NCBI GenBank assembly: GCA_951406725.2
Contig: OX597833.1
Location: 43,896,001 to 43,960,000, forward strand
Length of the DNA: 64,000 bases
DNA from: Octopus vulgaris
Lineage: Eukaryota
Direction: 5' to 3'
In this document: piece after piece, positions 29,433 through 62,063 of the stretch
Position numbering within the stretch: position 1 is the stretch's first letter
How the letters are laid out: each line of letters opens with the position of its first letter
Notes under the pieces: model-generated
Databases searched by the model: none
What the model was told of the DNA's origin: nothing
What the model saw: only the letters and a program-made list of their open reading frames with translations
Made by a program: the position numbers and the translations under genes

Positions 29433-29474
29433 ACTGTAACTTGGAAATTTCGCAGAAGGTGCTTATCAGACAGT
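29433..29474 (-). ncRNA. Degenerate hammerhead motif (duplication copy 1)
   Basis: ACUGU-CUGAUAA-GCA(ccuuc)UGC-GAAAU-uuccaa-GUU-ACAGU: stems I and II perfect, G8 changed to A. Confidence 0.5.
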
Positions 29475-39384: not shown

Positions 39385-39479
39385 TCATATATTCTTTCGA
39401 CTTGTTTTCTGGGGAATATGGTTTGCGTATATTAGAATACGATGTATGAACGCCCATATACATACAAAATATACAGAAC
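39385..39479 (-). CDS. Candidate terminal exon of protein A (GSVYFVCIWAFIHRILIYANHIPQKTSRKNI*)
   Basis: cttcag acceptor; read in phase 1 it gives a hydrophobic then basic tail and a stop. A diverged duplicate acceptor at 40514 would give GFTYVCGHS*. The true 3' end is uncertain. Confidence 0.4.
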
Positions 39480-39544
39480 CTGAAGCTTACGAAGAAAAAG
39501 ATACAAAAACAAAACAAAACGGGCATTTACTCGGATTTATTTAT

Positions 39545-39770
39545 AAGGCGGCGAGCTGGCAGAAACGTTAGCACGCCGGGCGAAATGCGTAGCCGTATTT
39601 CGTCTGTCGTTACGTTCTGAGTTCAAATTCCGCCGTGGTCGACTTTGCCTTTCATCCTTTCGGGGTCGATAAATTAAGTACCAGTTACGCACTGGGGTCG
39701 ATGTAATCGACTAAATCCCTTTGTCTGTCCTTGTTTGTTTCCTCTGTGTTTAGCCCCTTGTGGGTAGTAA

Positions 39771-39775
<5 letters not shown>
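39545..39775 (+). mobile_element. Second tRNA-derived SINE family (CORE/OR-like); representative copy
   Basis: AAGGCGGCGAGCTGGCAGAA..GAGTTCAAATTCC..CCCCTTGTGGGTA. Other copies at ~58433-58670, 43135-43330, 51930-52115 (+) and 11530-11765, 12675-12897, 29687-29922, 44400-44810, 63535-63880 (-). Confidence 0.85.
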
Positions 39776-39825
<50 letters not shown>

Positions 39826-40986
39826 GAATTGTCTACGTTCACACAATGACACACTCATGAACATGTTTTAAAATTATGGATACTCTTTTACTCTTACTTG
39901 TTTCAGTCATTTGACTGCGGCCATGCTGGAGCACCGCCTTTAGTCGAGCAAATCGACCCCAGGACTTATTCTTTGTAAGCCTAGCACTTATTCTATCGGT
40001 CTCTTTTGCCGAACCGCTAAGTTACGGGGACGTAAACACACCACCATCGGTTGTCAAGCGATGTTGGGGGGAGGGAGACAAATACAGATACATAAACACA
40101 CACACACACACACACATATATATGCACATATATATATATATATTTACGACGATCTTCTTTCCGTTTCCGTCTACCAAATTCACTCACAAGGCTTTGGTCG
40201 GCCCGAGGCTACAGTAGAAGACACCTGCCCAAGGTGCCACGCAGTGGGACTGAACCCGGAACCCTGTGGTTGGTAAGCAAGCTACTTACCACACAGCCAC
40301 TCCTGCGCCTATAAGTTTTTTCGAATGGCCATTGTATATTGCTTTTGCAATAACGTCGAGTCGCATGGGGGTGGTAGACAGTTTTTGCCACTTGTTAGTT
40401 AGAGCTAATTACACTATACACTACGTCAACATGCATACCGGAAAATATGGTTTGCAAAACATGCTTGTGTATATTAGAATACAATTTATGAATGCCCACA
40501 TACATATGTAAAACCTGAAGCTTACTAGCAAAAGAATATAAAAACCAAACCAAAGCGTGGACGCCCACACAGTGACACATGCCTGAACACACTTATTAAC
40601 ACGTATTGAAAATATGGATACATACAGATGCATTGAGATATAGCAGTAATTAACATTACGTATGAGGAACCTCTTCAGGGCATTTCGATCTGTGATAAAT
40701 AGCAGCGAAAGCTTCATCATTTCTTATACGTCGTCTTAAAAAAATGGGCATATTTGATGTTATAGTCCTAAATGTACTTTGATTAAAAAAAAAAAACATA
40801 TCTGAGATTGTCACTGTTGGAATGTATTTGGTTATATGTCTGCTCAATCTGAATCGGCTTTATCATCAAAGACTTGAAACTAAAGAGCAACAACAACAAT
40901 AAGAAGAGGTAAAAGTGCTAATCAAGGCAACACACACGCGCGTGCACACACCCACACACACACACACACACACACAAATTGCTTAC

Positions 40987-41289
40987 CTGGTGGGATGAGT
41001 TTTTCAGAGAGTGTTTCGCCGTCCAGAAAGCATGTAAGAGTTGTTGAGCCAGCATTCCTGAAATTTAACGTATAATTAAAAATTGACACAGCTACATTGA
41101 TACAATGGTCATATTGATCAACGCTCACGGAACGTGGAAATGCATTTACCCTAATGCGGGTTCTTTCAAACCATACAAAGTAAGTGGAATTTCTTGGTAC
41201 ACCGATAAATGCTGTACATCTGAAGATCAATGTCTTGTTCACTTCAATTGGTGGGTTAAGAAGTTTCAGTTTACTTATGAAAGATCCCA
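40987..41289 (-). CDS. Ig-like domain 2 exon (C-type-like) of protein A
   Basis: ttttcag acceptor and gtaagc donor; 303 nt, phase 1-1; pattern FRCTAFIGVP...FVW...C...LTC; gap-free paralog at 61762-62063. Confidence 0.85.
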
Positions 41290-41949
41290 CTGAAAAGAAA
41301 ACGAATCAAAATATGTAAATTTTTGTACAACGAACTTTACAATAATAGATTAGATGGTTTCATTAATAGAAACTATAATCTTCATTATTTCATATAATTT
41401 GCCACAAGGGCATCACACAGATGGAAGCTTTGCGGGCTGGATATGGACATTAATGGTATGAATGATGGTGATGCAAAAATGATGATGATGGGAGAAGACG
41501 AAAAGCGCCCGCCGACTTTCGCCTCTCTAAAACAATGTTCTTTTTTCCCTTTTCCCTCCAAAACACAATGAGGCAATAAACCTCTTACTTAAACAACATA
41601 ATGTTCAGAATTCTTTTTTCTGTTTTAAAACACACACACAAAAAAAAGTTACATGTTTCACATTTTCTAGACTCGTTCAGGTTATCCGGCCGACCAGTAT
41701 CCTTGCTTCATTGAAGCATGCACCCGGTTCCAGGCCGAACCACACAGGTATATATTACTATATAACTATAATCTTCATATTAAACTAAAACGTTTAACAA
41801 CGCTCCAACTATTCTTAATGCTGGACTTGGTGAACTGGTGCTTCGAAATTTTCGACTGTCAAACTTTTTAGTAAAGGCAGCGCGAAGGCTATGTGGAGCC
41901 AAGTCAATAGCAACAACTACACAACAAATTAATGATACACCATAGGCTG

Positions 41950-42298
41950 CAACCGTTTGACTTCTGTCTTTAAGGAAGTCCTGCAGCCACTCTCCCAGAT
42001 TACCAGCAATCCCAAGGTCTCGCAGCTTATGACATATCATGCCATGATTTACCTTACCAAATGCTTCTGGGATGTCAAAAAATATCACATTGACATTGGA
42101 ATGGTCAAGCAGCAGTTTCAAAACCCAGTCATAGGCGCAGGAGTGGCTGTGTGGTAAGTAGCTTGCTAACCAGCCACATGGTTCCGGGTTCAGTCCCACT
42201 GCGTGGCATCTTGGGCAAGTGTCTTCTGCTATAGCCCCGGGCCGACCAAAGCCTTGTGAGTGGATTTGGTAGACGGAAACTGAAAGAAGCCTGTCGTA

Positions 42299-42388
<90 letters not shown>

Positions 42389-43030
42389 TGTCCCCCTAGC
42401 ATTGCTTGACAACCGATGCTGGTGTGTTTACGTCCCCGTAACTTAGCGGTTCGGCAAAAGAGACCGATAGAATAAGTACTGGGCTTACAAAAGAATAAGT
42501 CCCGGGGTCGATTTGCTCGACTAAAGGCGGTGCTCCAGCATGGCCGCAGTCAAATGACTGAAACAAGTAAAAGAGTATAGTGCTGTAAAAGCTGAGTGAG
42601 GCAGCTTGTTCCTGGATGAAAGCTATGCTGTGTATTGTTTAGTAAGTAATCTTATTCTAGGAACATTATCAGTTTCTTTCTCATGATTTGCTCCATGACT
42701 TTACTGATATGTGAAGTTGGAGAGATTATCCTGTAGTTTTGGGCCTCTGCCCTGCCCTCACCTTTGCGGATAGGGCATATAATGCTTTCTTTTAGCATTT
42801 GAGGAAGTTTACCACTTGCAAGGAAACTCTGGAAAAGCATTTGACGTGGTTTCGCTTAGGGTTGCATACATGACTTGAGGAGAATAGCTAAGAAGCCATC
42901 AAGACACGTTGCTGAATTTGAGCTCATTTCATCGATTACCACTATTGCATCTGTCTCCTCAATATTGATGTAATCAATAGCCGGCGCCTTCTTTTGTAGG
43001 GCTGCAATATTAAATAATTCAGCTGGATTT
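41950..43030 (-). mobile_element. LINE reverse transcriptase remnant (CR1/Jockey group) split by a SINE
   Basis: LFQSFLASGKLPQMLKESIICPIRKG...NYRIISPTSHISKVME and VIFFDIPEAFGKVNHGMICHKL...WLQDFLKDRSQ. Confidence 0.8.
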
Positions 43031-43580
43031 TTTTAGCTGCACGATACTGGAGTGATTGAATTTAATTATTTATGTAAAGAATAATTTATATCATTAGCGT
43101 ATTGAATTTTGATTAATATTTTTTCTCTTATTTAAGGCGACGAGGTGGCAGAATCTATAACACGTCGGTCAAAATGCTTAACGGCGTTCTGAGTTCAAAT
43201 TCCACCATCAAGGACTCTGATTTTCATCCTTTTGGGTTCGATGAAATAAATACCAGTTGAGCACTGGGATCGAAGTAATCGACTTACTCCCTCCTCCGAA
43301 CATACTGGCCTTGTGCCAGAATTTGAAACCAATATTTGTTGCCTTACTGCATCAACTGTCTCAGTCTACAGAAAATTATCCAACCAGATACTCTACACAG
43401 TACGTAAAGTAGGTTCATTACAATAGAAAATACAAAAGCAAAAATAAATATTGCGCATATGAAAAGCTATAAACCTGTGTTCGATAGTGCAATGAAAACA
43501 TTCCATAGAAATGAAATGAATGATAATGGAGATGAATAAGTGAAAAAAAAAAAGAAGTAAAAAATACTAGTAAAACTGAC

Positions 43581-43904
43581 CTTCAAAAGTCTTAGATGGT
43601 GATGATTCTTCATTTGTTTTACATGAATAGTGTGTCGCATCTTCGCAACTAGCAACAAATTTCCAGCAGGTAATCTCACCTTTAGGACCAAATTTAGCTG
43701 GAGTACAATCGAAACCCTTTCGCTTGACTACTGGCTTAAACCTTTTTTCCGACCGGTCGAAATCACTTTGGAAAATAATGTTATCGTTTTGCATGAGAAA
43801 AAACTGAACGAAAAGATTTTTTACATAATACTGACAGGTTATACTTATTCCAGTGGAAGGTCCAACCTCAATAGTTTCAGGTTTCATTTTTATAATCTTA
43901 ATCC
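43581..43904 (-). CDS. Ig-like domain 1 exon (V-type-like) of protein A
   Basis: Polypyrimidine-acag acceptor and gtcagt donor; 324 nt, phase 1-1, open frame; strand-B Cys (SITC) and strand-F motif CEDATHYSC (D-x-x-x-Y-x-C). Confidence 0.8.
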
Positions 43905-44934
43905 CTGTATAAAGAAAAGAAAAACATAAATCCGAGATAGATTTTATAAAAAAACCCCATAAATTTAGGAGGAGTAGAAGGAGGAGAAAATAAGAAAAGC
44001 AGGAAAAAAAGAAGTGCAAAGATGAGAGGAGAAAGAGAATGTAGAGTAAAACAAAAGAGAAAAACAATGTGAAGAAAAAGAAAAAGAAGAGTAGGAAAAA
44101 CAGAACCAAAAAATGACGAGTGCTCATTTGAGTATGAATTACATTTATCCACAGATAAATTTTAGTATTTAGTTTTTAATATTTATTATTATACAAGCAT
44201 ACATATGTCATAATAAATTCGACAGTTTTATTGATAGCAAAAGGTGCATCAACATAGCGTGAAAAACCGATGATGAGAGAAATCGGTCTAGTAAATATAT
44301 GTACATACACAGAAATGAAGCATTTGAAGAACTAGATACGGTTGTAACGTCTCAGTTGAAAATATCGCCCACATAATGTATGTGTATGTATATATCTCAT
44401 TACTACCCACAAGGGGCTAAACACAGAGGGAACAAACAAGGACAGACAAACGGATTAAGTCGATTACATCGACCCCAGTGCGTAACTGGTACTTAATTTA
44501 TCGACCCCGAAAGGATGAAAGGCAAAGTCAACCTCGGCGGAATTTGAACTCAGAACGCAGCGGCGGACGAAATACCTATTTCTTTATTACCCACAAGTGG
44601 CTAAACACAGAGGGAACAAACAAGGACAGACAAACGGATTAAGTCGATTACATCGACCCCAGTGCGTAACTGGTACTTAATTTATCGACCCCGAAAGGAT
44701 GAAAGGCAAAGTCGACCTCGGCGGAATTTGAACTCAGAACGCAGCGGCGGACGAAATACCGCAAAGCATTTCGCCCGGCGTGCTAACGATTCTGCCAGCT
44801 CGCCGCCTTAATGTATGTGTATGTATATATAGACACACACAGACGCGCGCGTACACACACACACACACACATACATACACATATGTATGTACATATACAT
44901 ACATATATATTCGTGCACATGTATATATATTTTT

Positions 44935-45335
44935 GGTGAGAGAAATGTGTGGGGTGAAGCTGTTTGATAAAAGGAGAACTGGGGATTTGATGGGGATGCT
45001 GGAATTGGAGGAACGGTGGAACAACTGGTAAGGGCGAATGGAGTGGTATGGGCATACGTTGAGAAGGAATGGGGAGCTTGTTCTGAGGAGGGTGCTTGAG
45101 TTTTGAGTCAAGCGAGCCACGAAAGTGAGGTAGACCGAGGAAGATGTGGACGGGACAGGTGGAGGAGGAGATTGGAAAGGTTAGCTTGAGAAGAGAGGAC
45201 GCCCCAAACCGGGCAAGATGGCAAAATGGTGTGAAGACGGTTGCTATGGCACTGAGATAGATCCGGCCATCCCCGTTAACGGGGACAAAACCCGGATTTA
45301 AAACGCTGGATGATGATGATGATGATGATGATGGC
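44935..45335 (+). mobile_element. RTE LINE 3' end with (GAT)n tail
   Basis: MCGVKLFDKRRT..WYGHTLRR..GRPRKMW..NRARW. Confidence 0.8.
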
Positions 45336-45462
45336 GATGTATATATATATATATATATATTATGAGTTTGATCTGAGAACATAGACTTTTTGTGGAGAAT
45401 GGCGATTTGACGTCTATATCTAGCATGTTGACTGTCCACTTTTTCGTGTTCAGTCCTTAATT

Positions 45463-45502
<40 letters not shown>

Positions 45503-45719
45503 TAGGTGAATGAATTATCCTAGCATGGAAAATTCGTTTAACCGATACCTGGGTAGCAAATTCACGTCAGAAAACACGGTTGAAGCGACCTGTCAAGGAT
45601 AGAAACTCCGGGTTCTTGTGTGGAAATTTGTGTGTTTTTTATATGAATAAATGAAAGAATTTTGTTAAAATCTTCGTTCGACTCCATTCTTTCATTTATT
45701 CATATATATAATTTAAAAT

Positions 45720-47520
45720 AGGATAAAATCTTTATAAGAATTTATCAAGTAGTTAGCGTAAAAACCTCGTCACGGACAAGTGAATTTTGGAAGAGAGGCC
45801 TTACAAGTCTACCAGAGATATGGAAGGGCATTGTAGACAATGAAGGAGAGTATATTTTAGATTAAAGAAGAAATTCATCGTAATTTTTAAAAACAAAAAT
45901 TTATAATTATTCCCTTTAAATGTATTTATTTATATTAAGGGTATTACTACACGTAAATGCCTCACGTTATTAGGGACTCTTAAAGTCAAACCTATCATAA
46001 TAAATGCACAGTGTATCGAACGCGAGGGAAACCTAAAACCCAAATCTATTATAGTTGGTCTAGCATGTCCTACTCACCGTCTATGCAATTTTATTAACAT
46101 CATTTAAAACCATTATGTGCCCACACACCTAGTTTCATCAAAGAATGACATCGTCTTCCCAAAACAACGAAATCGTATTCACTTTTACTTAGTTTTGATG
46201 TAATACACCATTACACCAATATTCTACATGATTTAGGAATAAAGGCGATTAAACTCTGGGTAGAAAACCACTGAGAAGCGATTCCCAGTAGACTCACCGT
46301 GCCATTTATACTAGATGCAGTCAAACATATCCTTGGAAATAACACATTCTTTTTCAGTGGAAAGATTTACAAGTTTGAGGCAAAACGATGAGAACGAGAT
46401 TTGCTCCTATTTATGCGATGTCTGTAAAGGTATACTTAGAAAAAAACTCTATGAAAGGGTAGATGAAAACAACAGCACTGTATTTAGAAGATATACTGTA
46501 GATGCATAGAAGAGATACCTTGACGATTGCTTCATAATTTGGACAAAATCTTTAGATACTCTGCAAGAGTCTAATATCCTCCTGAAAAATCTGCACTCAA
46601 CTCTCCAATTTTCAAAGAAGAGTAGTACCAAATAATCATTTTTAGACATAATGGTAATTAAAAATAATACCACCTTCACCACTGATATATACTATAAACA
46701 CATACGCATCAATACCTCAACTTTAAATCGTGTCATCCAACACATAAAAAAAAACTCAATATCCCATACTGCCTAACCAGAAAAAAATTTGTAAATACCA
46801 GAGACAAACGCCTAACAGAACACAAAGAATTTCTCCTCAAACAAAAATATCAATCCCTACTTGCAGTAGATCGTATACAGCGTACTATAGAAACGCTCAT
46901 ACAAATGAGGGCAACCACAAAAAGAGGAAAACAAGAACAGGTCATACCATTTATAGTGACACACAATCCGGGTCACCAAAATATCTTTAACATCGCCAAG
47001 GTAACCTTGCCGATCATTGCTCAAAGTAATGAATTAATGGATATAAACACACATGGGCTATGATTCTTAGTTAAGGACAGGCGAAGTACTTGAAACAATT
47101 ATTTACAAAGGCAAAGTTTGACCTAAGTAACAATGACGAATCATTCATTGTATTTAAATGTAATGATAATCAATGTGGTACATCTCAGATCATAGATACC
47201 GGACAATATATAAACTCAAAAACGGAAGAATATTTACAAATGCAAATATGAACTGCAAAAGCAGGAATTTAATTTACTGCATCAAATTCCCTACATTGAC
47301 CAAACTGGGAATGCATTATCGGAATGCTCACGAGTACACCGACAGCAAATTAGGGAACCTGATGTCCGTCAGATACCTTTAAGTAATCATCTGGCAACAT
47401 GTGGCCAGAAAAAGTTTATAATACTCTCATTCTTCAAACTACAGAGCTCATGTGGAATTGAGAGGAAAGACAGAGAAAAGAATTTTATTGATAAATTCAA
47501 ACCCGTTTAAATGGACAGTT
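45720..47520 (+). mobile_element. Penelope-like element remnant (RT + GIY-YIG)
   Basis: LLSFDV..YTNI, RYLDDCFIIW, SFLDIMV..TDIYYK, SCHP, CKSRNLIYCI..HRQQI..RKDREKNFIDKFKP, with many stops and frameshifts. Confidence 0.85.
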
Positions 47521-47589
47521 ATAATAACGGTAATAAATATAATGATAATGGTGAGAATAATAGCTATTATTACTGCTACATCGCCAGTA

Positions 47590-48460
47590 ACGTCCTGCAA
47601 GCCTTGGTGGAACAAAATCTCATTGTAACTGCCGAGGAACTATCAGAGAAGCTTGGATTTGGTCATTAACCATTCATCGACACCTGCGTGCCATTGGAAA
47701 AGTATGCAAATTGGGTCAATAGGTTCCTCACAAACTTTCCGAGTTTAATCATGCACAGAGAGTGAATGTGTGCTCTACTTTACTGACACGTCTTACGAAT
47801 GTACTTTTTTTGGACTGAATAGTGACTGGTGACGAGAAATGGGTTCTCCATAAAAATATGAAGCGCTGAAGACAGTGGGTAGGGAAAGGAGAAACACTGG
47901 TACCACAGGCTAAAGAAGGACTTCACTCACAAGGTGTTCTTATCCGTTTGGTGGGATATGAAAGGTTTAGTGCACGTTGAATTTTTAAACCTAAACCAAA
48001 CGATAACAACGGAGATCTAATGCAAACAGCTTGGGCGGCTTAAGTCAGCGATAAACGAAAAACGACCATCTTTGGTTACAAAACAAAAGGTGTTCTTTTA
48101 TGAGTATAATGGTCGGTCACATACACCAGGAATGACATTCCAATGGCTTGAGCAGTTTGAATGGAAAACGATGCCCTACTCATCATATTCGCCGGACATT
48201 GCCCCATTTGATTATCATTGATTCCGCATTGGACAGAAAAATCATGTTGTGTATACGACGTCAGAACAATCTTGGAGGAGTATTTTTCGTCACGGACAAG
48301 TGAATTTTGGAAGAGAGGCCTTACAAATCTACCAGAGATATGGAAGGGCATTGTAGACAATGAAGGAGAGTATATTTTAGATTAAAAAATAAATTTATCT
48401 TAATTTTTAAAAACAAAAGAAGTATAAAAAAAACCGCATTATTTATGGGATGACCCAATA
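47590..48460 (+). mobile_element. mariner transposase remnant with right TIR
   Basis: EELSEKLGFGH..VPHKLS..IVTGDEKWVL..FWKRGLTNLPEIWKGIVDNEGEYILD*; ends GGGATGACCCAATA. Confidence 0.85.
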
Positions 48461-48637
48461 CATACATATGTATGTTCAAGACATAAAACAAAGTATCTGC
48501 ACTTATACATACATACATTCATACATTCTACAACTTCAATATCCCTACATATCTCACATCTATTTTCTTTCCTCCACTTCACTCTCTATTTTGTATCCTA
48601 TCTAAATTAAGTATTACTTAACCATCCTCTCACACCA

Positions 48638-48687
48638 TCTCTGATGAAGGGATATAATTGATAAATATCCTGGAAACAGCTGTAAGA
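48638..48687 (+). ncRNA. Minimal type-I hammerhead ribozyme (PLE terminal repeat)
   Basis: UCU-CUGAUGA-agGGAUAU...AUAUCCug-GAAAC-agcu-GUA-AGA; full core, palindromic ACAGCUGU. Confidence 0.75.
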
Positions 48688-48900
48688 CCTTCTATCTATA
48701 AATGTTCTGATATCTACACAGTCTTGGTTCTTTATCTCATTACGCAAAAACTTCTTATATACACACGCTGACATATAACCAACGTTGAACCCCTTATTCG
48801 CAAAATTACCGAACCTAGAACTTAACTATGGGGTGTCTATAGCACTTATTCAGCTTTACCTGACACCTTTGGGTCTCAATGACACCATTACCTCTTATAA

Positions 48901-48939
<39 letters not shown>

Positions 48940-49183
48940 CAATAATAACTATAATAATATATAATAATAATAATAATATATATTCTCCGATTTAAAGCGA
49001 CATTGATATATATATATATATATGGGTATACGCATGTGTGTGAGTGTGTGTGTGTGTGTGTGCGCATGTCTGCATATGTGTGTGCGTATAGTGCGTCTTG
49101 CGACGATCAAAGTATGATATCTAAGACAAGAAGATCTAATACTATAACTGAAAAATGTATTATTTTACTTAATATTAACTTAC

Positions 49184-49232
49184 AGGCCGAAGTGTAAGAA
49201 GCCATCATCAGCATCATCATAGTTAACAACAT
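49184..49232 (-). CDS. Signal-peptide exon of two-Ig-domain protein A (MLLTMMMLMMASYTSA + 1 nt)
   Basis: ATG at 49232; hydrophobic Met/Leu run ending in T-S-A; GTAAGT donor in phase 1, which joins the 43904 exon in frame (T+GG = Trp). Confidence 0.7.
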
Positions 49233-49622
49233 CGTTGATCTTGAGCAACAAGTATAAAGCAAAAGGGAAAATGATCGTCGGCTCCCAGAACCTAGAAATA
49301 TTACGAAAAGATGTGTCTGGTACCAAAATTGAAGTCGAAATGGCCAAACACAACAAAAAAAAAAAAAAATAGAGAGAAAAGCGCAATATATGTAAGTGGG
49401 AATGGGAGGGGGAGTGAAACTTGAAGTGTGAGTGAAGCTGAGATAGTTCCATCCTTCTTTTTACTTCTCTTTCTCTCTCCTCCCTCTCTCCTCCGTCTCT
49501 CTCTCTCTCTCTCTTTTGCTCCGAGAAGACAAGTAGAATATAGAGAAAACAGTTTCACAGAAAGTAAAATTCACACACACACGCACACACACATATCAAT
49601 ACACGCACACACACATATCAAC

Positions 49623-49660
<38 letters not shown>

Positions 49661-49990
49661 CAAAACGCACACACACATATCAACACACGCACACACATAT
49701 CAACACACGCACACACACATCAACACACACACACACACATCAACACACACATACACACACACGCGCGCACACGCTGCACACACACACACACACACACACA
49801 TGCATACATACATACAAATAAAGGGGGAAAATGGAAGATAGAAAAATTCAGAGTGAGGGAAGTATTGTGATTTAGAAAGAGACGCCGACTAAGAACGCGG
49901 GAGAAGAAAGTGAGGGAAAGTTGAAAGGAAGTGAAAATGAGAACGAGAGATAAGGAAGAAGTTTTACAAGGAAATGTTAGAATGACAGAT

Positions 49991-50027
<37 letters not shown>

Positions 50028-50301
50028 AAGAGAAAGAGAAAGAAAAAAGTGAGAGAGAGAGAGAAACGGTCAAATATTTTCTTTTGTTACATTTTATTCT
50101 TTTACTTGTTTCAGTCATTTGACTGCGGCCATGCTGGAGCACCGACTTATTATTTTGTAAGCCCAGTACTTATTCTTCTATCGGTCTCTTTTGCCGAACC
50201 GCCAAGTGACGGGGACGTAAACACACCAGCATCGGTTGTCAAGCAAAGCTAGGGGGACAAACACAGACACACAAACACACACACACACATATATATATAC
50301 A

Positions 50302-50684: not shown

Positions 50685-51147
50685 TATATACGACAGGTTT
50701 CTTTCAGTTTCCGTCTACCAAATCCACTCACAAGGCATTGGTCGGCCCGGGGCTATAGCAGAAGACACTTGCCCAAGATGCCACGCAGTGGGACTGAACC
50801 CGGAACCATGTGGTTGGTTAGCAAGCTACTTACCACACAGCCACTCCTGTGCCTATATTTGTTTATATTTTTCGTAATTGATTTTTCACTATGACACTAC
50901 ACTGGACACTGGTTGTAGAGGCTGATCTAGCTGCCTTAACAACTTCCTAAGCTTTCTTCCGACTCGATTGTTTAATGTGAAAGTGAATCGTTGGGAGTGC
51001 TGGACTCATCAGGGTTATATGATGTCCAAGTTCCTTCTTTATTGTAGGGTCACCCAGGCAGTTGAGAAAAAAATCGAACGTTAGTGAGCAAGTATAAGTT
51101 ATAAAAATTGATAAAGTGGACAGCAAACATTATTCAAGTAAGCTAAA

Positions 51148-51538
51148 TCAATATATATAAAGCTGAAGTTGTCTGTGTATCGCAAGTTTGGTAGCCTTAA
51201 ACTAATACTATCTCCTCCGAGACCCTGCGGCGCAAGTTGACCAAAATTGAGAGTATGATAGAAAAAGTCTTGCTCTTCATTCCGTAGAAGATAAAATTCC
51301 AGTCGGATCATGTTAACACCAAAAATTATTTACATCAAAAAGGTGCTATTTTTTTAATGAAAATCCCTATTTTTTACGATTTTTTGACAACTGTGTCGCC
51401 ATTTTTCGGTGTATTTCAACCAGAAAATTGTTCACTTAAAGAGAATAACAAGCTACATAATGCAAAAGTTTTACTTTTCAAAAATTCCAATTCTAAAGGG
51501 TCGAAACAAAGCCGAGTAATGCCGGGCGATACTGCTAG
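51148..51538 (+). mobile_element. Non-autonomous Helitron-type element
   Basis: A|TC start; 3' end GCCGAGTAATGCCGGGCGATACTGCTAG|T, related to the 50302 copy. Confidence 0.6.
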
Positions 51539-51649
51539 TCTATGATAAAAAGTCAGCGTACGATAAATATCTGTTGGGGGGGGGGGCTTCAATTGAACGG
51601 CGCGCACGGAGAGGTAAAAATTTGTTTTTGAAATAGTTTATATAGTAAG

Positions 51650-51706
51650 TCTGGCTGACGAGCCTTGACTGGTGGTTCAACACAGGTGAAATCAATTGAT
51701 CACAGA
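51650..51706 (+). ncRNA. Minimal type-I hammerhead motif with AUC cleavage triplet
   Basis: UCUGg-CUGACGA-GCCU...AGGU-GAAAU-caauug-AUC-aCAGA; palindromic AUCAAUUGAU; one mismatch in stem I next to the core. Confidence 0.65.
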
Positions 51707-52116
51707 ATTTCTATGAATTTATTTGTATTTTACTATATGTATTATTACAAATAAGAAGACTGTTTCGGAGAAATAGGCTTACTATATTCTCCGTACGTGT
51801 TTACATTTAGTGAGAGACGAGTGGTTTTGGAAGATTTTAACTCCTCTTTCAAGCAAACAGGTATTTATCGTACCCTTACTTTTTATTATACCACAGATGG
51901 TAAGGGTTTACATAGGAAGTACTACTGATTACGCCGGGCGAAATGCTTAGCAGTATTTCGTTTGTCTTTATGTTCTGAGTTCAAATTCCGCCGAGGTCGA
52001 CTTTGCCTTTCATCCTTTCGGATTCGATAAATTAAGTACCAGTTGCGTACTGGAGCCGATCTAATCGACTGGCTCCCTACCCGAGAATTTTTGGCCTTGT
52101 GCCTAGAGTAGAAAAG

Positions 52117-52150
<34 letters not shown>

Positions 52151-52245
52151 TCAGGGTGTGGTGTAAGTAAGTATCATTCAAATTGAACGATTTTTTATTG
52201 GGAAATTTATAAAAAAACGATGTTTTAAATACTTTTGCTACCCAG

Positions 52246-52293
<48 letters not shown>

Positions 52294-52294
52294 C

Positions 52295-53054
52295 AGGGTG
52301 CGGTGTATAAACTGTCGCCTTAATTACGCAAAAATGAAAATAACACTGATATCTCATTTTAACAGATATATTTACCAAAATTGCCTAAAAATATCTTGAA
52401 ATAATAAAGAGCAAGTATGTTCAATAAAATCGCCATTGGCTTCAACCACAGCCTCCAGACGACTTCAGAATCTCCTGCAACTCTTCTGGACCGTCTCCTT
52501 GTTCAAGTTGGTGAATGCTGCCATAATCTTTGCCTTCAGTTCATCTCTGGTGTTACAATGAGTTTTATGGTCTCTCGCTCAACTACACTCCACACATAAT
52601 AATGAAGAGTGTTGCAGTGTGGGGAGTTAGGTGACCAGATGTTAGGGGTTATGAGGTCGCAGAAATTGTTTGACAGCCATGACTCGCTTCACCTCCATCT
52701 GTGGCATGATGCAGAGTCATGTTGTCAGATACAGGCTCGTCCAGCAGCCACCCTCTTCACCCAGGGCAACACTACCTCCTCCACGCACTTGATGTAGACC
52801 TCCGTGTTGAGTGTGAGTGGGAAGATGAATGGAAGCATAACGTCACCATCACTAGTAACCACTCCAAATACCATGATGTTGACTGGATGTTTGATTTTTA
52901 TCCCTCTCGGTACATATCTTCTCGATACTTGTCCTCAGATCCATGTCCTCGGATTGACACGAAATGTTCGTACTGTTGTCAAACCGCGCAACATGTCATT
53001 TTCAAATTTCTGGCAGAGTGAATCGAGTCATGGGGCTGTTTTTCTCAAATACGG
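52295..53054 (-). mobile_element. maT/DD37D-like Tc1-mariner remnant
   Basis: QHDSASCHR...WLSNNFCDLITPNIWSPNSPHCNTLHYYVWSVVERET. Confidence 0.7.
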
Positions 53055-53282
53055 TATATATATATATATATATATATATATTCGTCATTCGAAGGCTAAA
53101 ACAATGCGAACGCATTGTGACCAGCGATGTATAACTACATCTGATGGACTGGTCGGTCACGTGATGGTGATGGTGATATACACACACATATATATATATA
53201 TATATATAGGTTAGTACAGTTAGCGGTTGGAATGACCGTCGAAGAGATAAGAATATCCGTTTTAATACTGGTATAAATTATA

Positions 53283-54195
53283 CAGTGTGTTCAAAAAGTC
53301 TCTCCGCAGTAAGTATTTTATTGCGAAATAAACATCTATAAGTTAGTATAGAACTACAAATCATTATACTAGACTTTACAAGACTTTAAAAAACTTTATA
53401 AGAGGTGTTGAAAGTGTTGTCCTTCATTTTCAGTACATAAGTTGACTCTTCTACACATGTTTTGAAATAAACCTTGGAGAGTCTGACACGTTTGGAGATT
53501 ATGATTGAGGCTTTTAGCTCATTAATGGTTTTCGGGCGATTCTTGTACACTGATCCTTTACTCGCTCCCCAGTAAAAATGTCTGGCGGTGTTAAATCAGG
53601 TGATCTTGGTGGCCAAAGTCCCTTCGAAATAATCCGTTCACCGAAAAACTCTTGAAGTAGCGCCATGATGATGCGCGAGGTATGTGTTGTAGCTCCGTCT
53701 TGCTGAAAGTGTGCATTATTAATTTCGCTTTCAGTGAGTTGGCCCACAAATGGATAGACAACATTTGAGCAATATTTCTCGGTGTTGATGGTGTCTTAAA
53801 AAAGAAAATGTCGGTCCCACAATACGGTTTCTCGAAATTGCTATCCATATTCGACTTTTTCGGGATGCCAAAGTTGCTCATGCATCGCGTGTGGATTCTC
53901 AGTGCTTCATAACGTTGTGTTTTGCGAATTTATGTGTCCCGACAGATGAAACCAAGCCTCATAGGTGTAAAAACACCCATCCAGCACTTCTATGCCTTTT
54001 TCGGCAACAACATTTTGGAACCAAGGACAATAATGAAGCCTTTTAGCATGATCCGTAGTTTTCAATTCTTGAATGGCCAGCATTTTGTATGGAAAGAAAT
54101 TTAATTTATTTTTTACTGTTGTGTGAGCACTTTGTAGGCTGATTTCCGTTTCATGTGACAATATTGATATCCTTTTTTTTTTTACAACATTCATG
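53283..54195 (-). mobile_element. rosa-like Tc1-mariner remnant
   Basis: YEAWFHLSGHINSQN and FQQDGATTHT...IISKGLWPPRSPDLTPPDIF (D-x38-D); terminus TA|CAGTGTG. Confidence 0.75.
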
Positions 54196-55379
54196 TGCTA
54201 TGTCTCTACGTAGATATTTATTTTCAAAAGGGGACTCATTTTCCCTTCCAAAGTTGCATCTTTTTATAACTATTATTACTTTCAGCATAACAACTATAAT
54301 TATACCCGCTATTTGACTGTTACAAATTTTACTATTTTTATGATATTTCTATCATTATTATAATAATTAACACTGACAGAGTCTAAGTCCCTCGTTGTTC
54401 TTAGTACTTATTGTTCCTGCGCATCTTCCACGCATGAAAGCGATCTTATCTGTTAGCCTAACAGCGATTCCACTATATCTCTTATGCGTCTGTAGCAATA
54501 TTGCTTTCTTCATTGCTATCTTCACTGTTTGAGAAAAATATTAAGAATGATCTCGTTTGAGATTACAAACATCTTTGGCTAGTCTAACGTTGTTGTGTCC
54601 ACTATTTTGATTGGTTAGCATCTAAGCGCGGTCTGTCTCTCTACTTATTTCGCGCCAGTGTGTAAACTGACCAATCACGGCTTTCGGATAGGACTTTTCA
54701 TTTGAGCCATCTTAACTCTTTAAATAGGCTGATCATATCACGATTCATGTCTTTCGGCTTAAGACCTTTTAAGGTCTTGGTCGGAGACCACACAGAGCTT
54801 ACTCAACCATGTTCCAGTTCGAAAGGCAGACGACAGCCAAGCCAACCATAATATGAAGACGCTATTGTAAACCAGCGACAGACATAACGTCATCACCATC
54901 ATCGTCTCCATCTACGAAGATTTCCACTTGTACACAAGATAAATACAGATTCAACTCATGCTGTTAGTGTGAAAATCTCACCACGGAAAAACAGTTGCAG
55001 TATATATATCTGAAAGAATATCTATATCAAGAGAAAAATATGCACAACAAGTGACTCAACTAATCTCTGCTCTGAGACTCAAATCTTGTATAGAACTCAT
55101 TATCGTGTACTACATGAACTGGTAAAATAACTCTAAAGTAACTTTATATAAACTAAAAATGTTGAGACTTCTCTTATGTTCTGTTGTATTTCTTTCGCAC
55201 GCACGAACACACAGATACAAATATTATAAGCATGCATTCATGACACAACAATACGCATCACTGTACACTGTGAAATAAATCTATCTTCTCTTTATAAAAG
55301 TAGAACGGTTTTTGGCGTCCCTTTATTCATTTACTTTGGCACTGTATATTAAACATGTATTATGGCTTATATAACATTA

Positions 55380-55780
55380 TGTTATGATATGCTGGGATGC
55401 GGCCGGACGCTGTTGAACAAGAGGAGAAATATGTCACCGAAACTCCTCACGCACGGTCGTATACTAACACGTCCATAGCTTATACGTGGCGTAGCAAATG
55501 GAATTACGTCCCACTCCTTTCCTACGTATTGAACAAGGCCATTTACCTGGCGGAAAGATAGTCTTATCTGCTTTCTTGCAAACAACAAATTTAATCTTTG
55601 CTAGGTTAAATTTAAGGCCCTTTGTTTCCAGGTTTCGCTTCTAAACCATGAACCTCTCCAATTTTGCTTCAGATTCTGCAATAAGAGAAAGATTATCAGC
55701 ATATGACATTTCCCATGGGCACCCAATTTTGAATTCCTCTGTTATGGCCTGGAGAACTATGGTGAATAAGAGTGGACTAA
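55380..55780 (-). mobile_element. RTE LINE RT fragment
   Basis: SPLLFTIVLQAITEEFKIGCPWEMSYADNLSLIAES...KGLKFN...KWPCS. Confidence 0.75.
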
Positions 55781-55789
55781 GAATTGATT

Positions 55790-56575
55790 ATTCTGTATTA
55801 TTTCTTACTTACGTAAAAGTTTTCCCATTTTACTATTATTCTTTTAAACTACTATGTGCAGTGTTCTGCCTATCGTAATTTATGCCACTACCTAAGGTTG
55901 TCTTTGTACTGCTGCTCCATCAGGCTCCGTTAATTAAATTATTTCTTTCCCTATTTCTTACTATCCTTGCATTTTCATCCTTTCCCTTCTATCGCTATTA
56001 CTTAGAGTCAAAATATCGATTCTGCTAATGAGCCCCTCATAGTATCAGATCTGACATTTATAACCCTATTTCTACAATCGCTCTTATTGTTATTTATATC
56101 GTCATTAATTCCCCCTCTAGACTTACCATTTTCATCTTCCAATTGTGGACCTTACAATTATAATAATTATTTTATAGAGTTCACGGGTTCGTGCAAGCAG
56201 GGTTGCAAACTACCTCATTACTTTGGATGTAACTAATTTTCCTGTATATCCCACTCTAGCTAGTGCTGCCTTTTACAACCCTATTCGACATAAAGATTTC
56301 CTTGACTGCAGACGATTTTGAAATTCTATGCGAAACGTTATTAATAATAGAGTTTATAATTGCAAGGGGATGATTTGAGGATGTTCTAATGTTCCTAAAA
56401 TTCTCGCTTGATTTATGGTAAGGTATATATAATCTTACATTGAAGCTCGATATATCTAGAAAATTAACTAATCTGTTATCTGCTTCTATAGTGATGGATA
56501 AGCCAAAATTTCCGAAGAATTTAAATAACATTTTCCTATACATTTCTAGTTCCGCTACGCTATACCTGCCAGCAT
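55790..56575 (-). mobile_element. Penelope-like RT C-terminal remnant
   Basis: FGLSITIEA..VNFLDI..YIPYHK..SNHPLAIINSI..RISKSS. Confidence 0.7.
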
Positions 56576-56811
56576 AAGAGACTATGTACCTACATATAGG
56601 TGAAAATTTATTTTATGATATCTATATTGATGCATGTGTTTGAGCGTGTATGTACACAAATATATTGTACGCACACACACACACACACACGAACACACAC
56701 AAACATTCATATGATATGTTTTCAATAACAGAAGTCAACGAGCAGTAACTGGAGAAAGCACACAAGAGAAGGTGTTGAATCTAATATTTATTTCCGGGAA
56801 AATGTGAGTTG

Positions 56812-56853
56812 ACCGTAACTAGGAAGTTTCGCAGAAGAGGTTCATCAGGCAGT
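56812..56853 (-). ncRNA. Degenerate hammerhead motif (duplication copy 2)
   Basis: ACUGC-CUGAUGA-accucuucugc-GAAAC-uuccua-GUU-ACGGU: core intact, stems I and II damaged; paralogous to 29433-29474. Confidence 0.5.
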
Positions 56854-56953
56854 AACCTGTAAAAAAGAATGCGTTGTCAATTTAGAAAGAAACTATGTAT
56901 GTATGTATGTATGTATGTATGTATGTATGTATGTATGTATGTATGTATGTATG

Positions 56954-57001
<48 letters not shown>

Positions 57002-57017
57002 CATCCATCTATCCATC

Positions 57018-57048
<31 letters not shown>

Positions 57049-58302
57049 CTAAGTAGGTAGGTGTGTATGTATGACTATATGTATTTGTTTTGTTTATGTA
57101 TGTATGTATGTATGTATGTATGTATGTATGTATGTATATATGTATGTATTTGTCCCTAGCCAGCGCTTGACAAACGGCTTTGCTTGTATAAGGTCCCATA
57201 AGATAGTGGTTCAGCAAAAGCGACCGGAAGAATAAGTACCAGATTTAAAGTTAAATAGTGATGCGTATTTTTCGGTATTTCAAGGTTATGGACAAGCATG
57301 GTCGCAGTCCAATGACTGAAACAAGTAAACGGTCTATGTCCGAAATGGTGAGATGTTCAGTGTTCGAATGCCTTGCTTGATGAATGCTGATCCAAACATG
57401 AATGAATGATAACAACAATGGGATTTGTTAAGAAAAGCAATGCAGTAAGCACAAACTAAATCAATAATATTTTAATATAAGAATAACAAAATCACAGAAA
57501 AGAAAATGAATTATATAATACGAACCTGGTTGATTCGGTTTTTCTTTTCCGAGATACTTCATGCAGATTGCTAATAAAAAGCAGGGCTGTTGCAAATATT
57601 AAAATCTTAGTAATAATATTTGCATTATACAATTTATCTGTAACAGAGAGAAAAAATATATTCCATTATAATTTTGGTACAAGGCCAGAAATTTTGGAGA
57701 AGGAGGAAATCGACTACATCAACTCCAGTACTCAATTGGTACTTATTTTATCGACCCCGAAAGGATGAAAAGCCAAGTTAACTTCGGTGGCGTTTGAACT
57801 CAGAAAGTAAAGCAGGATATAATGCTGTTAAGAATTTTTTCCTGCGTGCTCACGATTCTGCCAGATCTCCTCCTCAGAAAAAAAAATAATCAGGGATATT
57901 GAGAATTTACATAAACATGTATAAAAAAAGAAAAATAACTATAACAGCAGGAAAATAATTATGGCAACAGATTTCCTTACTTAGGGGGAAATGCTCACCA
58001 GTAGTACCATGGTAAATGCTTTTCTCTCTTCTATGTTTCTCAAACTACAGGCGCATGCTCATTTTAGGGCAATTCACTCGCGCCATTCATTCACCGCCTA
58101 ATAAATGTACTGGGAGTAAACAGCTCCCTCTCCACGCTTACTTTCCTTCCTAAGTGAAATTTGAAAAGTCATGAGGGTTTGGTTAAAAAACAACAACAAA
58201 GAAACAAGTGTCTGCCTTCAGGCATATCAGTCGCGTGGACAAAGTTCCGACACACGATCTCAGATCAGGTCACTTGCTACGCAAGTACATCTCCGTAATG
58301 TA

Positions 58303-58338
<36 letters not shown>

Positions 58339-59111
58339 TGTATGTATGTATGTATGTATGTATGTATGTATGTATGTATATGTGTATTATATACACAAAT
58401 TAAGGAGAGGCGGTAAGGTATTATAGGCCAGTAAGGCGGAGAGCTGGCAGAAACGTTAGCACGTCGGGCGCAATGCTTAGCGGTATTTCGTCTGCCGTTA
58501 CGTTGTGAGTTCAAATTCCGCCGAGGTCGACTTTACCTTTCATCCTTTCGGGGTCGATAAATTAAGTACCAGTTACGCACTGGGGTCGATGTAATCGACT
58601 TAATACCTATGTCTGTCCTTGTTGTCCCCTCTATGTTTAGCCCCTTGTGGGTAATAAAGAAATAGGTATTATAGGTCAGTAACAAAGTCTTTAGTTTTCT
58701 GTAATAATCTGTGTTCCTCCATGAGTGTGGTCTACGGGTAGTGTTTAGCCGAGCAAAGGGTATAGAGTCAAAAGATGAGATGCAGAGATGTAGCGCTCAA
58801 ATAATTTGAACTTACACTCCGAAATTTTTTGTTTGCGTGTGTGTATGTGTGCTAATGTTTTCTATATTGAACATATCTGGATCTCATCTGCTGAATCATT
58901 ACCCTTTGCTCAGCTGAGCGCTACCAATAGATCACACTTCTGGATATATAATTCTTGGGCACATCTACAAGGAATATCTCAATTCCACCCTGGGATCTCT
59001 ACATGAAGGTCTTACTACAGGAAACCAACGACTATATTACGGACCTTCGCCATGATAGATCGCTAGCCACTAAACCTTTTTTAATTTCTCTCCCTGTTTA
59101 TTTCTGTGTTC

Positions 59112-59147
59112 CTTTCTGACGAACAGCATAGGCACGAAACGTAAAAG
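59112..59147 (+). ncRNA. Ultra-minimal hammerhead motif
   Basis: CUUU-CUGACGA-acaGC(auag)GCac-GAAAC-GUA-AAAG; stem III reduced to the ACGU palindrome; stem II weak. Confidence 0.6.
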
Positions 59148-59170
59148 ACTTTCTCACTTCCTGAGCGTTA

Positions 59171-59228
<58 letters not shown>

Positions 59229-59377
59229 AAGAAAATAAGGTGGCTTATTTTCTTTACTATATACTGAACCTTACAAAGGTCCTGACAATTAATTTGTCGT
59301 ATTTACATACCGAAATTTACCGGTAAATAATTGTTGGTTACATGGAAAACCACAGGAAAATTATTTACCATTTTTAT

Positions 59378-59420
<43 letters not shown>

Positions 59421-59536
59421 AAATATATATATATATCGTAGCTCTTCGCTCTGACATTTGAAACACCGAATACTATAACATATAAAAATAATTCTCTATT
59501 TCTTTAATATCAAGGTCTCATTCTTTTGTTGTTATT

Positions 59537-59598
<62 letters not shown>

Positions 59599-60239
59599 CA
59601 TTCACACACTGTCGTGTGTTACTAAGTCAATTTCTACTCACACGGGGCCAATTTAACGCTTTCGCATTAATTTAGTTTTAGCTCAATCTTAATTTGCACT
59701 TACATTTTGACATAAATTAATCGAAGTCTTGTTCAATAGAAAAATTTATGATAAAAGATGTTGGACTAAAAACGTTAGTATAGTTATTTAAAAGAAAAAC
59801 TATACTTGGATTATAACTATTTAAAAGAACTCAATGTGTAGAATCATTTGGTGAAAACTTTGTTAAAAGATAGAGAAAACTTATGCAACTTTAAGTGATA
59901 AAAAGTGATAATTTGTTGTTAGGTTTTTATTTGTTTACACCTACGTTCGGAGAGTGACTGCTGTGACAACTGACTACTACTGTTATAAAATGCTTGGGAT
60001 TTGAATGGGTTAACGGACCTACATAACTGGGCATTTTTCAGACGGTTTTTCTTACGAAGATGGGCCCTTGCGACTAAAATATAATGGACTTTTGAACTTA
60101 CCGCTTGTTGGAAGCTCTCTATTTTCTCTCATTTCACATTCTTCGATATCACAATGTTCAAGCAAACCACAACGCTCTTATTGCCCTAAAAAATATTTTG
60201 TCATTCCCTTAGCATTATTATTATCTATTTTTTCTTTAT

Positions 60240-60670
60240 ATATCAAGGTCATCCCATGAATTCTGTCCAATTTTACCTTTTTAAAATTGAATGAAATTTA
60301 CTAGCATTTTAGAATGTCTAATGGAATTTAAAATTATTTTTATGCATTTGTGTACATTTAAACTAATTAAATATTATTTTACAGAATAATAGAATTAAAA
60401 TTTCTTTGATGAAAACCCTTTCTAACATGGAAGTATCCAAAGAGCATTTAAGGCACATAATGCTTTATGAGTACAAAAAAGGAAACTCTGCAGCCGAAGC
60501 GACTCGAAACATACACTCAGTTTATGGGAAAGAATGCTTGAATGAAAAGAACTTGCAGAAGATGGTTTGCAAAATTCAGAAGTGGAGATTTCAGCCTTGA
60601 AGATGAAGATCGAACAGGACGTCCAATTGAGTTTGATGATAAGCCCCTTGAAGCATTACTTGGAGAAAAT
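60240..60670 (+). mobile_element. mariner 5' remnant (HTH region) truncated by a PLE-type sequence
   Basis: MEVSKEHLRHIMLYEYKKGNSAAEATRNI..(frameshift)RTCRRWFAKFRSGDFSLEDEDRTGRP. Confidence 0.85.
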
Positions 60671-61216
60671 CTTTATAAGAATTTATCAAGTAGCGTGAAA
60701 AACCTCATAAGAGAAAAAACATAATTTTTTCTCTTAAATATATTCATTTATATTATATAGAGGGCATTACTATACATAAATGCTACACGCTATGAGGGAC
60801 TCTTAAAGTCAAAACTACTAAAATAAATAAACACATAGTATCGAATGCGAAGGAATGCAACTGTCGAAGTGAGCCTTTTAAAAACAGAATTCAGTTGCAA
60901 ATCACATGATTTCACAATTCGTGCAGAAATGCACATTTTAATCATCAGTGCAAGCATAATTCAAGATTTATAACGAATGAACAAAAATCAACATACCAGA
61001 TGCACATCCAATGTATCCAGCGTAGCATATACAAATGTTCAATCTTTATACATCTATGTAAAAGACGGGCTTTTTCGAATTGCAACATGTTTATTATGAA
61101 TAGCAATTCAGTACTGAACATACCCCGGTTAAATTTACAATTTAAAAATAGTTTTGGTAGTTTTGACTTTAAGAGTCCCTCCTAGCGTGTGACATTTATG
61201 TATAGTAATGCCCTCC

Positions 61217-61293
<77 letters not shown>

Positions 61294-61666
61294 GTAAATA
61301 ATATATATATATAAAGCCCTCGCCCCCTCCCCAACAGTGTCATGTATATGAACGCACTCATGAACGCGAATTAAGTATATGGATACATACAAATGTAGAG
61401 GTGATTAACATATAGGTATGAGGAACTTCTTTAGGGAATTTCGACCTGCGAAAAATAGCAGAGAAATCGCCATCATTTCTCATACGCTGTCTTAAAAGAA
61501 AAAAATGGGCAGATTTGATATTACAGTCCTCAGTGTACTATGATTTAAAAAACATCGGAATGTATTTGGTCATAGGTCTACTCAATCTCAATCAAATCCA
61601 TCATCAAAGACTTGAGACAAAATAGCAGCGACAAAATTAACAAGAAGCGGTAAAAGCGTTAATCAA

Positions 61667-61736
<70 letters not shown>

Positions 61737-61761
61737 ACACACACACACACACAAAACTTAC

Positions 61762-62063
61762 CTGCTAAATGAGTTTTTCAGTGATTGTTTTACCGCCCAG
61801 AAAACATGAAATGCTTGTTGTGCCATTATACGTCTTTTCTAAAGTATAATTATACACTGATACTGCTGCAGTGAAACACTTGCCATAATGTGTGATATGT
61901 TGAAACTTTTCAAAAACATCTACTCCAAATTTTGTTCTTACAAACCATATAAAATAAGCTTCACGAAGTGGTGCACCGACATATGCAGTACATCTCAAGA
62001 ACATTGTCTTGCCCTTTTCAGCAGGTGGGTTAAGAACTTGCAGCTTGTTTATGTAAGATCTCG
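61762..62063 (-). CDS. Ig-like domain 2 exon of tandem paralog B (1-nt deletion gives TAG just before the donor; upstream exons presumably beyond the window)
   Basis: Same acceptor and donor context as 40987-41289; 45/98 aa identical with no gaps; 302 vs 303 nt. Confidence 0.75.

Follow-up and report, generated by a model that had tools for sequence, protein, structure and literature searches.

A window of 64,000 nucleotides from Octopus vulgaris (assembly GCA_951406725.2, contig OX597833.1, forward-strand positions 43,896,001 to 43,960,000; coordinates below are those of the window) contains one gene (A) and the 3' half of a paralogue (B) that are predicted to encode proteins of the immunoglobulin superfamily (IgSF), each with a V-type (domain 1) and a constant-type (domain 2) Ig domain. 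The domain 2 exon has changed about twice as much between the two copies as the surrounding non-coding DNA. The octopus family to which both genes belong is real and apparently undescribed; standard annotation leaves its members “uncharacterized” and mis-modelled (fused, truncated, or merged). As judged from the sequences, the evidence for positive selection on this family is good but not final. We tentatively favor the view, at somewhat less than an even chance, that these tandem genes, so far found only in octopuses, encode probably glycosylphosphatidylinositol (GPI)-anchored recognition molecules whose exposed strands have been subject to episodes of positive selection, with pathogens or parasites as the most likely opponents.

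The excess divergence of the domain 2 exon is evident in the comparison of the two copies. Between A and B, 95/294 nt of the exon differ (32%), with differences at 37, 28, and 30 of 98 sites for codon positions 1, 2, and 3, whereas 306/1735 nt (18%) differ in seven collinear non-coding blocks (Kimura two-parameter distance 0.15-0.31 per block) located at 29.3-41.9 kb in copy A and 56.6-62.3 kb in copy B; an eighth block was excluded because its alignment is broken by a short interspersed nuclear element (SINE) present in one copy. The excess is significant against all seven blocks (Fisher p 3e-8) and against the three adjacent blocks only (p 2e-4), and also for codon positions 1 and 2 alone (65/196; p 8e-7 versus flanks). 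The blocks were first found by BLAST, which introduces a bias towards similar DNA, but a contiguous sliding alignment has the same shape (47-51/60 in the downstream intron, 45-47/60 at the exon ends, and 35-37/60 in the exon center). The similarity of the flanks reflects common descent, since a SINE located at the same place in both copies is more similar between A and B (82% identity) than to other copies (69-76%); independent insertions of the same transposable element, which an earlier note on this DNA had named as a possible source of the intron similarity, are thereby excluded. The same note had counted 45/98 identical amino acids without gaps between the two domain 2 exons and 27/60 identical nucleotides in a chosen exon window, and both counts were reproduced exactly. 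Its intron samples could not be placed exactly, but 80-nt windows of the downstream intron yielded 61-70/80 identical positions, bracketing the 67/80 that it had given.

Further evidence for positive selection is provided by codon-based comparisons. If the neutral distance is fixed at the non-coding value of 0.21, the ratio of non-synonymous to synonymous substitution rates (dN/dS, or omega) of the A/B domain 2 pair is 2.2, and a two-sequence site mixture (M1a versus M2a; an in-house implementation, not codeml) prefers a class above 1 (p 0.015). Independent of the exon of gene B is the comparison of gene A with LOC106880708, its likely orthologue in O. bimaculoides, which shares 128/199 amino acids; no fewer than 88 non-synonymous changes on 443 sites separate the two, which puts dN at 0.23 or more. 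The mean autosomal dS of O. bimaculoides versus O. sinensis is 0.123 (PMC10925132; PMC citations refer to excerpts of the respective papers), and the binomial p for the dN of the orthologues is 1e-7 at a neutral divergence of 0.123, 4e-4 at 0.154 (the local value of untranslated regions, UTRs), and 0.018 at 0.18. Protein trees, from which domain matches under 60 profile positions were excluded, pair gene A with LOC106880708 (support 96/93 for domain 1; 99/96 together with one further row for domain 2), gene B with LOC106880714, CAI9737735 with 715-X4, and CAI9737736 with LOC106880707. Gene B and its orthologue share 74/107 amino acids in domain 1 versus 46/47 in the tail (read-through into the intron counted), and the domains of two further orthologue pairs are 64-81% identical. 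The distance between the flanks of A and B (about 0.2) exceeds the species distance of 0.123, which is consistent with the presence of counterparts of both genes in O. bimaculoides; the duplication thus appears to predate the split between O. vulgaris and O. bimaculoides. Because the family copies of O. vulgaris and O. sinensis (2.5 million years) are 96-100% identical, selection seems to be episodic rather than continuous.

The changes are not evenly distributed over the proteins. In domain 1, variation peaks in BC, C', C'C'', and C''; in domain 2, the peak is in CD/D, with 29/48 of the differences between A and B falling in strand D, whereas cysteines and core motifs are near-invariant. An Ig fold, which the earlier note had expected, is predicted for both domains (AlphaFold2, predicted local distance difference test [pLDDT] 86 and 94). 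For the counterpart of gene A in O. bimaculoides, the model consists of two beta-sandwiches (mean pLDDT 86.2; about 90 over domain 1), and the Foldseek matches listed for it are all IgSF chains. Its domain 1 aligns with the V domains of antibodies, T-cell receptors, and CEACAM proteins (Z 10.5-11.2, root-mean-square deviation [rmsd] 2.1-2.5, 91-98 aligned); nectin, Dpr, and RIG-5 are also among the matches, with the structures of Dpr1, DIP, and RIG-5 tied with antibodies. The V-set look-alikes of gene A's own domain 1 exon score 0.91. The domain is a predicted two-sheet sandwich with the C' and C'' strands of a V-set domain; the cysteine pair of strands B and F is kept in 27/29 and 28/31 rows of the alignment, which also contains a D-x-x-x-Y-x-C motif, but the C strand carries Phe or Leu in place of the canonical Trp, which makes it an atypical V domain. 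Domain 2 of gene A itself is predicted with seven strands (pLDDT 93.6), and the B-F cysteine pair and the C-strand Trp are present in 25-26/26 rows. It matches MHC class II C1, SYG-2, Necl-4, and VCAM D2 (Z 9.5-10.0, rmsd 2.2-2.9), on a par with Ig-like domains from bacterial enzymes (best Z 11.3), and may be of either the C1 or the C2 type. Domain 1 has an extra cysteine pair and one spare cysteine, domain 2 has one spare cysteine, and these extra cysteines occur in every aligned row (30/30, 31/31, and 26/26); the spare residues may form a disulfide bond between the domains. Sequence profiles did not detect this relationship: the three exons matched no Pfam family at E 10, 27 family members yielded nothing above the cut-off (V-set matched 1/27, at E 0.059), and a profile search of PDB sequences returned no Ig protein at E 10 and one chance match.

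The exons of both genes are compiled in Table 1. The signal-peptide and domain exons of gene A lie where the earlier note had placed them and join in frame, and the symmetric phases that it had given for the two Ig exons were borne out, both exons being open and bordered by AG and GT; the stalk, tail, and last exons of gene A and the tail and last exons of gene B are additions to its account. The joined product of gene A comprises the signal peptide, both Ig domains, stalk, and tail (263 amino acids, eight cysteines, and four sequons). Domain 1 has five cysteines and lacks the canonical C-strand Trp, a point overlooked in the earlier note; domain 2 has three cysteines and retains its Trp. The start of the signal peptide shares 14/16 amino acids with that of O. 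bimaculoides LOC106880709, domain 1 shares 71/71 with O. sinensis LOC118766814, and the last exon matches 19/26 at the C-terminus of LOC106880708. Wherever the O. vulgaris model CAI9737731 overlaps with the exons in the window, the match is exact, even at a residue for which O. sinensis is different, which makes O. vulgaris the most likely source. Because an assembly gap interrupts the intron, the link of gene A to its stalk exon rests on collinearity with gene B and on this database model. The alternative 3' end may be a gene-model artifact. No third copy of an Ig exon and no second signal-peptide region were found in the window.

Table 1. Exons and other features of genes A and B in the window.
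Feature	Coordinates	Strand	Remarks
Gene A, last exon	29250..29477	-	3' UTR, or coding sequence upon skipping of the tail exon; starts at 29477
Gene A, tail exon	30644..30753	-	Encodes a spacer and a hydrophobic stretch, with the stop 33 nt ahead of the junction; resembles a GPI signal
Gene A, stalk exon	32584..32622	-	39 nt, phase 1-1; O. vulgaris model CAI9737731 attaches it to the end of domain 2
Assembly gap (100 N)	35936..36035		In the intron of gene A between domain 2 and the stalk exon
Gene A, alternative 3' end	38489..38549	-	In O. sinensis gene model; 19 codons, then stop; 19/19 amino acids match
Gene A, domain 2 exon	40987..41289	-	Predicted constant-type Ig; 303 nt, AG/GT-bounded, phase 1-1, open
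Gene A, domain 1 exon	43581..43904	-	Predicted V-type Ig; 324 nt, AG/GT-bounded, phase 1-1, open
Gene A, coding exon 1	49184..49232	-	ATG, signal peptide, 16 codons + 1 nt; ends at GT
Gene B, last exon	56612..56856	-	Would extend the cytoplasmic part by about 24 residues; ITIM not matched
Gene B, tail exon	57526..57637	-	Basic run after the hydrophobic stretch; no early stop
Gene B, domain 2 exon	61762..62063	-	302 nt; 98 open codons up to a TAG immediately ahead of the donor

The sequence upstream of the start of gene A (49233-49554, minus strand) is strongly conserved among paralogues, and its reading frame resembles the N-terminal extension of LOC106880714 of O. bimaculoides; the promoter or 5' UTR of gene A is therefore also more conserved than the Ig exons. 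An intron of gene A harbors a local duplication (39276-39519 versus 40316-40554, about 70% identical), and position 39385, at which the finding of the earlier note starts, falls inside it.

The paralogous domain 2 exon described by the earlier note is present in gene B, but its deviating length, one base shorter than in gene A, and the in-frame TAG before the donor had been missed. Its first 39 amino acids recur exactly in CAI9737731, immediately after a domain 1 unit located outside the window. The tail exon encodes a predicted transmembrane helix and a short cytoplasmic tail, in which no immunoreceptor tyrosine-based inhibitory motif (ITIM) was matched; local alignment did not find a stalk-like exon. 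The model of LOC106880714 splices domain 1 directly to the tail.

The family was counted in protein databases by word-based searches and a full HMMER scan, that is, among gene predictions rather than reads; one of the 17 HMMER matches (P0014), an unrelated repeat protein, was dropped. There are at least nine distinct domain 1 sequences in O. bimaculoides (LOC106880707, 708, 709, 713, and 714, three under 715, and LOC128250265), four loci in O. sinensis (LOC118766814-817), and seven models with 16 domain 1 matches in O. vulgaris (CAI9737731-36 and 38). Their near-consecutive identifiers are part of the evidence suggesting that the members form one cluster per species. All labelled matches are from Octopus, although the search sensitivity was limited and does not establish an absence from squids; molluscan look-alike clusters in the Atlas score 0.93-0.94 and provide leads only. 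The gene models include one-domain forms, tail-skipping forms, and a form of 1202 amino acids, and the alignment contains one O. vulgaris paralogue that has lost a canonical cysteine. The long form (CAI9737738 of O. vulgaris) consists of five near-identical V-domain repeats separated by Thr/Pro-rich stalks, with repeated basic runs resembling protease cleavage sites and a domain 2 that appears complete in the last repeat only. In O. bimaculoides, three different paralogue proteins (about 41-49% identical) are filed in RefSeq as isoforms X1, X2, and X4 of LOC106880715, which implies shared exons; these represent either real cassette splicing or mis-mapped, similar UTRs.

Other features of the window include a single open reading frame with MORN repeats (21256-21807, plus strand; Pfam E 2e-18), which is the nearest recognizable gene on that side of the cluster, and exons of an ABC transporter, probably of the ABCC/MRP type (3825-4097 and 9058-9417, plus strand; matches to ABC_membrane and ABC_tran). 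Tandem duplications of a SINE and of other non-coding segments (44393-44810, 23325-24541, and 1599-2689) are 84-97% identical, and fragments of SINEs, mariner-like elements, and long interspersed nuclear elements are numerous across the window.

The mode of membrane attachment bears on the function of the proteins. Small residues followed by a polar spacer and a C-terminal hydrophobic stretch form the pattern of a GPI signal. In the tail of gene A, small residues and a short polar spacer precede a hydrophobic stretch running to the stop; the pattern of this exon recurs in eight paralogue models. Only 1-4 residues lie between the hydrophobic stretch and the C-terminus in gene A, as in eight of nine database models, which were chosen for the presence of a tail, and gene A is therefore likely to be GPI-anchored at the cell surface. 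In the mechanism that we propose, the signal peptide would route the protein outward, and the anchor would hold a rigid rod of V and C domains at the cell surface. Exposed strands would bind an outside ligand, with each paralogue either binding a different one or escaping a microbial adhesin, and, after duplication, domain 1 would have diversified in its C-C'-C'' region and domain 2 in its C-D hairpin. Since most members lack a signaling tail of their own, they may act as tethered or shed receptors with a partner, or as decoys. Skipping of the symmetric exons would give rise to one-domain, secreted, short, or shed forms. A conflict with pathogens or parasites is our first choice because faster-than-neutral change implies a changing partner.

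Several observations weigh against this interpretation. The pairwise dN/dS of the A/B domain 2 exons is 0.90-1.11, which is not different from 1 (p 0.7-0.8), because dS is also high (dN 0.43-0.44; dS 0.39-0.49, about twice the flank value, which the earlier note had not noticed). The tandem Ig family, the predicted fold, and a divergence of the Ig exons beyond neutral yardsticks are supported as the earlier note had proposed; a dN/dS above 1 was not demonstrated for the pair itself. At fourfold-degenerate sites, 7/22 positions differ between A and B (p 0.09 versus flanks). When the neutral distance is left free, it settles at 0.40 and improves the fit over 0.21 by 2.3 log units (log likelihood -663.7 versus -666.0). 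Part of the exon excess may therefore reflect an exon that is older or has been converted; possible contributors to its raised dS are conversion from another paralogue, changes of several bases at once, and decay of the exon in gene B. The domain 2 exon of gene B may be dead, skipped, the source of a secreted form, or an assembly error. For O. vulgaris, the published assembly is based on polished nanopore sequences (PMC10700109). An assembly gap separates domain 2 of gene A from its stalk exon. The orthologue test loses significance if the local neutral divergence is 0.20 (p 0.11), orthology deduced from protein trees in a tandem array may be false, and O. vulgaris and O. sinensis have almost the same gene A (71/71 and 99%). 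The GPI anchor is predicted from a residue pattern, and the gene model of the orthologue of gene A lacks the tail exon. The connection to pathogens is drawn by analogy only.

The analogy is closest for CD2/CD48/CD58 and the CEACAM proteins, which the octopus family would most resemble in the way it works; the resemblance is treated as analogy rather than as membership. CD2, CD48, and CD58 combine a V and a C2 Ig domain, are GPI-anchored or transmembrane proteins, and are encoded in tandem clusters, and CEACAM V domains are among the fold matches of domain 1. The octopus genes share with these systems the predicted domain order, one exon per domain, probable GPI-anchored and transmembrane variants, tandem duplication, and fast change on the C-C'-C'' side of the V domain. 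By contrast, they lack sequence homology detectable by profiles, have extra cysteine pairs, diversify domain 2 as much as domain 1, and are recorded only from Octopus. Like the Alr genes of Hydractinia (PMC9546547), they form a cluster of divergent IgSF members that is invisible to Pfam, with an atypical V domain recognized by structure prediction and with putative pseudogenes and alternative splicing. Alr proteins, however, are single-pass proteins with an FN3-like spacer and often carry activating (ITAM) or inhibitory motifs in their tails, whereas the octopus proteins mostly end in a GPI-like signal after a short stalk and lack an FN3-like spacer, gene B alone being short-tailed, and the near-identity of sister-species copies gives no hint of hyperpolymorphism. 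The Wirins (Dpr/DIP of Drosophila, ZIG-8/RIG-5 of Caenorhabditis elegans, and IgLONs; PMC10084454) have two or three Ig domains with a GPI anchor; the octopus family would resemble them in its two predicted Ig domains, likely GPI anchor, and expanded paralogues, but it has no sequence match to their solved members, and its orthologues change faster than neutral. The FREPs and VIgLs (PMC11999971, PMC13428168) are likewise molluscan and diversified and have tandem Ig domains. The octopus proteins differ from these plasma lectins in having a predicted membrane anchor, and no fibrinogen, C-type lectin, or galectin domain was present in gene A or the 27 alignment members scanned; membership in this group, a link suggested by the earlier note, was therefore rejected.

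The strongest alternative to a conflict with pathogens, which is less probable but deserves serious attention, is that the same proteins evolved under the same selection in a reproductive conflict, as recognition molecules of sperm, egg, oviduct surface, or seminal fluid. In other animals, there are known gamete proteins with GPI anchors and with Ig domains. The sequence evidence supports either interpretation equally; fast change across distant species combined with near-identity in sister species fits selective sweeps, and, in two-spot octopuses, the tail of high dN/dS values includes gamete-recognition genes (PMC13669787). On the other hand, at least nine paralogues with one-domain, multi-domain, and mucin-stalk forms would exceed the repertoire of most gamete ligands.

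It is rather unlikely that the family represents a code of cell identity or self-recognition with paralogue- or allele-specific binding, in the manner of neuronal adhesion by Dpr/DIP or of Alr-like self/non-self marking of skin or suckers. Two Ig domains with a probable GPI anchor correspond to the layout of Dpr/ZIG-8 (PMC10084454), tandem divergent atypical V domains encoded by one exon each to that of Alr (PMC9546547), and nectin, Dpr, and RIG-5 are among the fold matches. These matches, however, are tied with antibodies, and the identity of the sister-species copies, compared at one allele each, does not indicate polymorphism of the Alr type. A wiring code should change little from one species to another, whereas the domains of octopus orthologues are just 64-81% identical.

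Similarly doubtful is the explanation that no special selection is involved and that the genes are weakly constrained, partly decaying duplicates, with an exon that looks older than its flanks through gene conversion among paralogues and an intron similarity overstated by BLAST-picked flanks. The omega of about 1 and the raised dS of the A/B pair, the premature stop in the domain 2 exon of gene B, and the loss of a canonical cysteine in one O. vulgaris paralogue all fit this explanation, and an omega above 1 is common in short, lineage-specific octopus genes through noise or relaxation (PMC13669787). Relaxation, however, cannot lift dN past the neutral rate, and the minimum dN of the orthologues is 0.23 versus 0.123. 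Moreover, the excess is confined to exposed strands, with Cys and Trp kept in 23/30 to 31/31 rows, and the similarity of the flanks is even over the seven collinear blocks and supported by the shared-site SINE.

An equally modest chance is given to the possibility that the family constitutes the octopus's own germline-encoded repertoire of variable receptors, a lineage-specific V+C family whose diversity stems from selection acting on exposed strands, from the skipping and multiplication of domains, and possibly from cassette splicing to shared exons. A family of secreted venom or salivary effectors is very improbable: accelerated evolution of venom coding regions has been reported in snakes, and models that skip the tail exon would be secreted, but most full models have a conserved GPI-like tail, which also weakens the effector or toxin option of the earlier note, and no toxin family scored above the cut-off and no solved relative was found by sequence.

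In the literature searched, no paper naming these octopus Ig loci or the family was found by accession or topic, although subscription papers and supplements may differ. The word “immunoglobulin” is absent from the main text of PMC9068888, PMC13669787, and PMC13230822, and the locus identifiers of O. sinensis do not occur in the searched supplements of PMC9712504. The accessions of the family and three short motifs were not in the searched part of the table of skin-mucus peptides in PMC10138644, which is no evidence of absence. The diversified recognition receptors of mollusks covered by the excerpted reviews are FREPs and Ig receptors of bivalves, with none named for cephalopods (PMC11999971, PMC13428168). 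If the family were indeed a germline-encoded variable repertoire, octopuses would possess a dedicated immune or self/non-self locus of a kind not described for cephalopods in the literature searched. With at least nine genes for probable surface Ig proteins, the exposed strands of which evolve more rapidly than neutral DNA, the family provides a concrete candidate for the recognition of pathogens, mates, or own tissue by octopuses.

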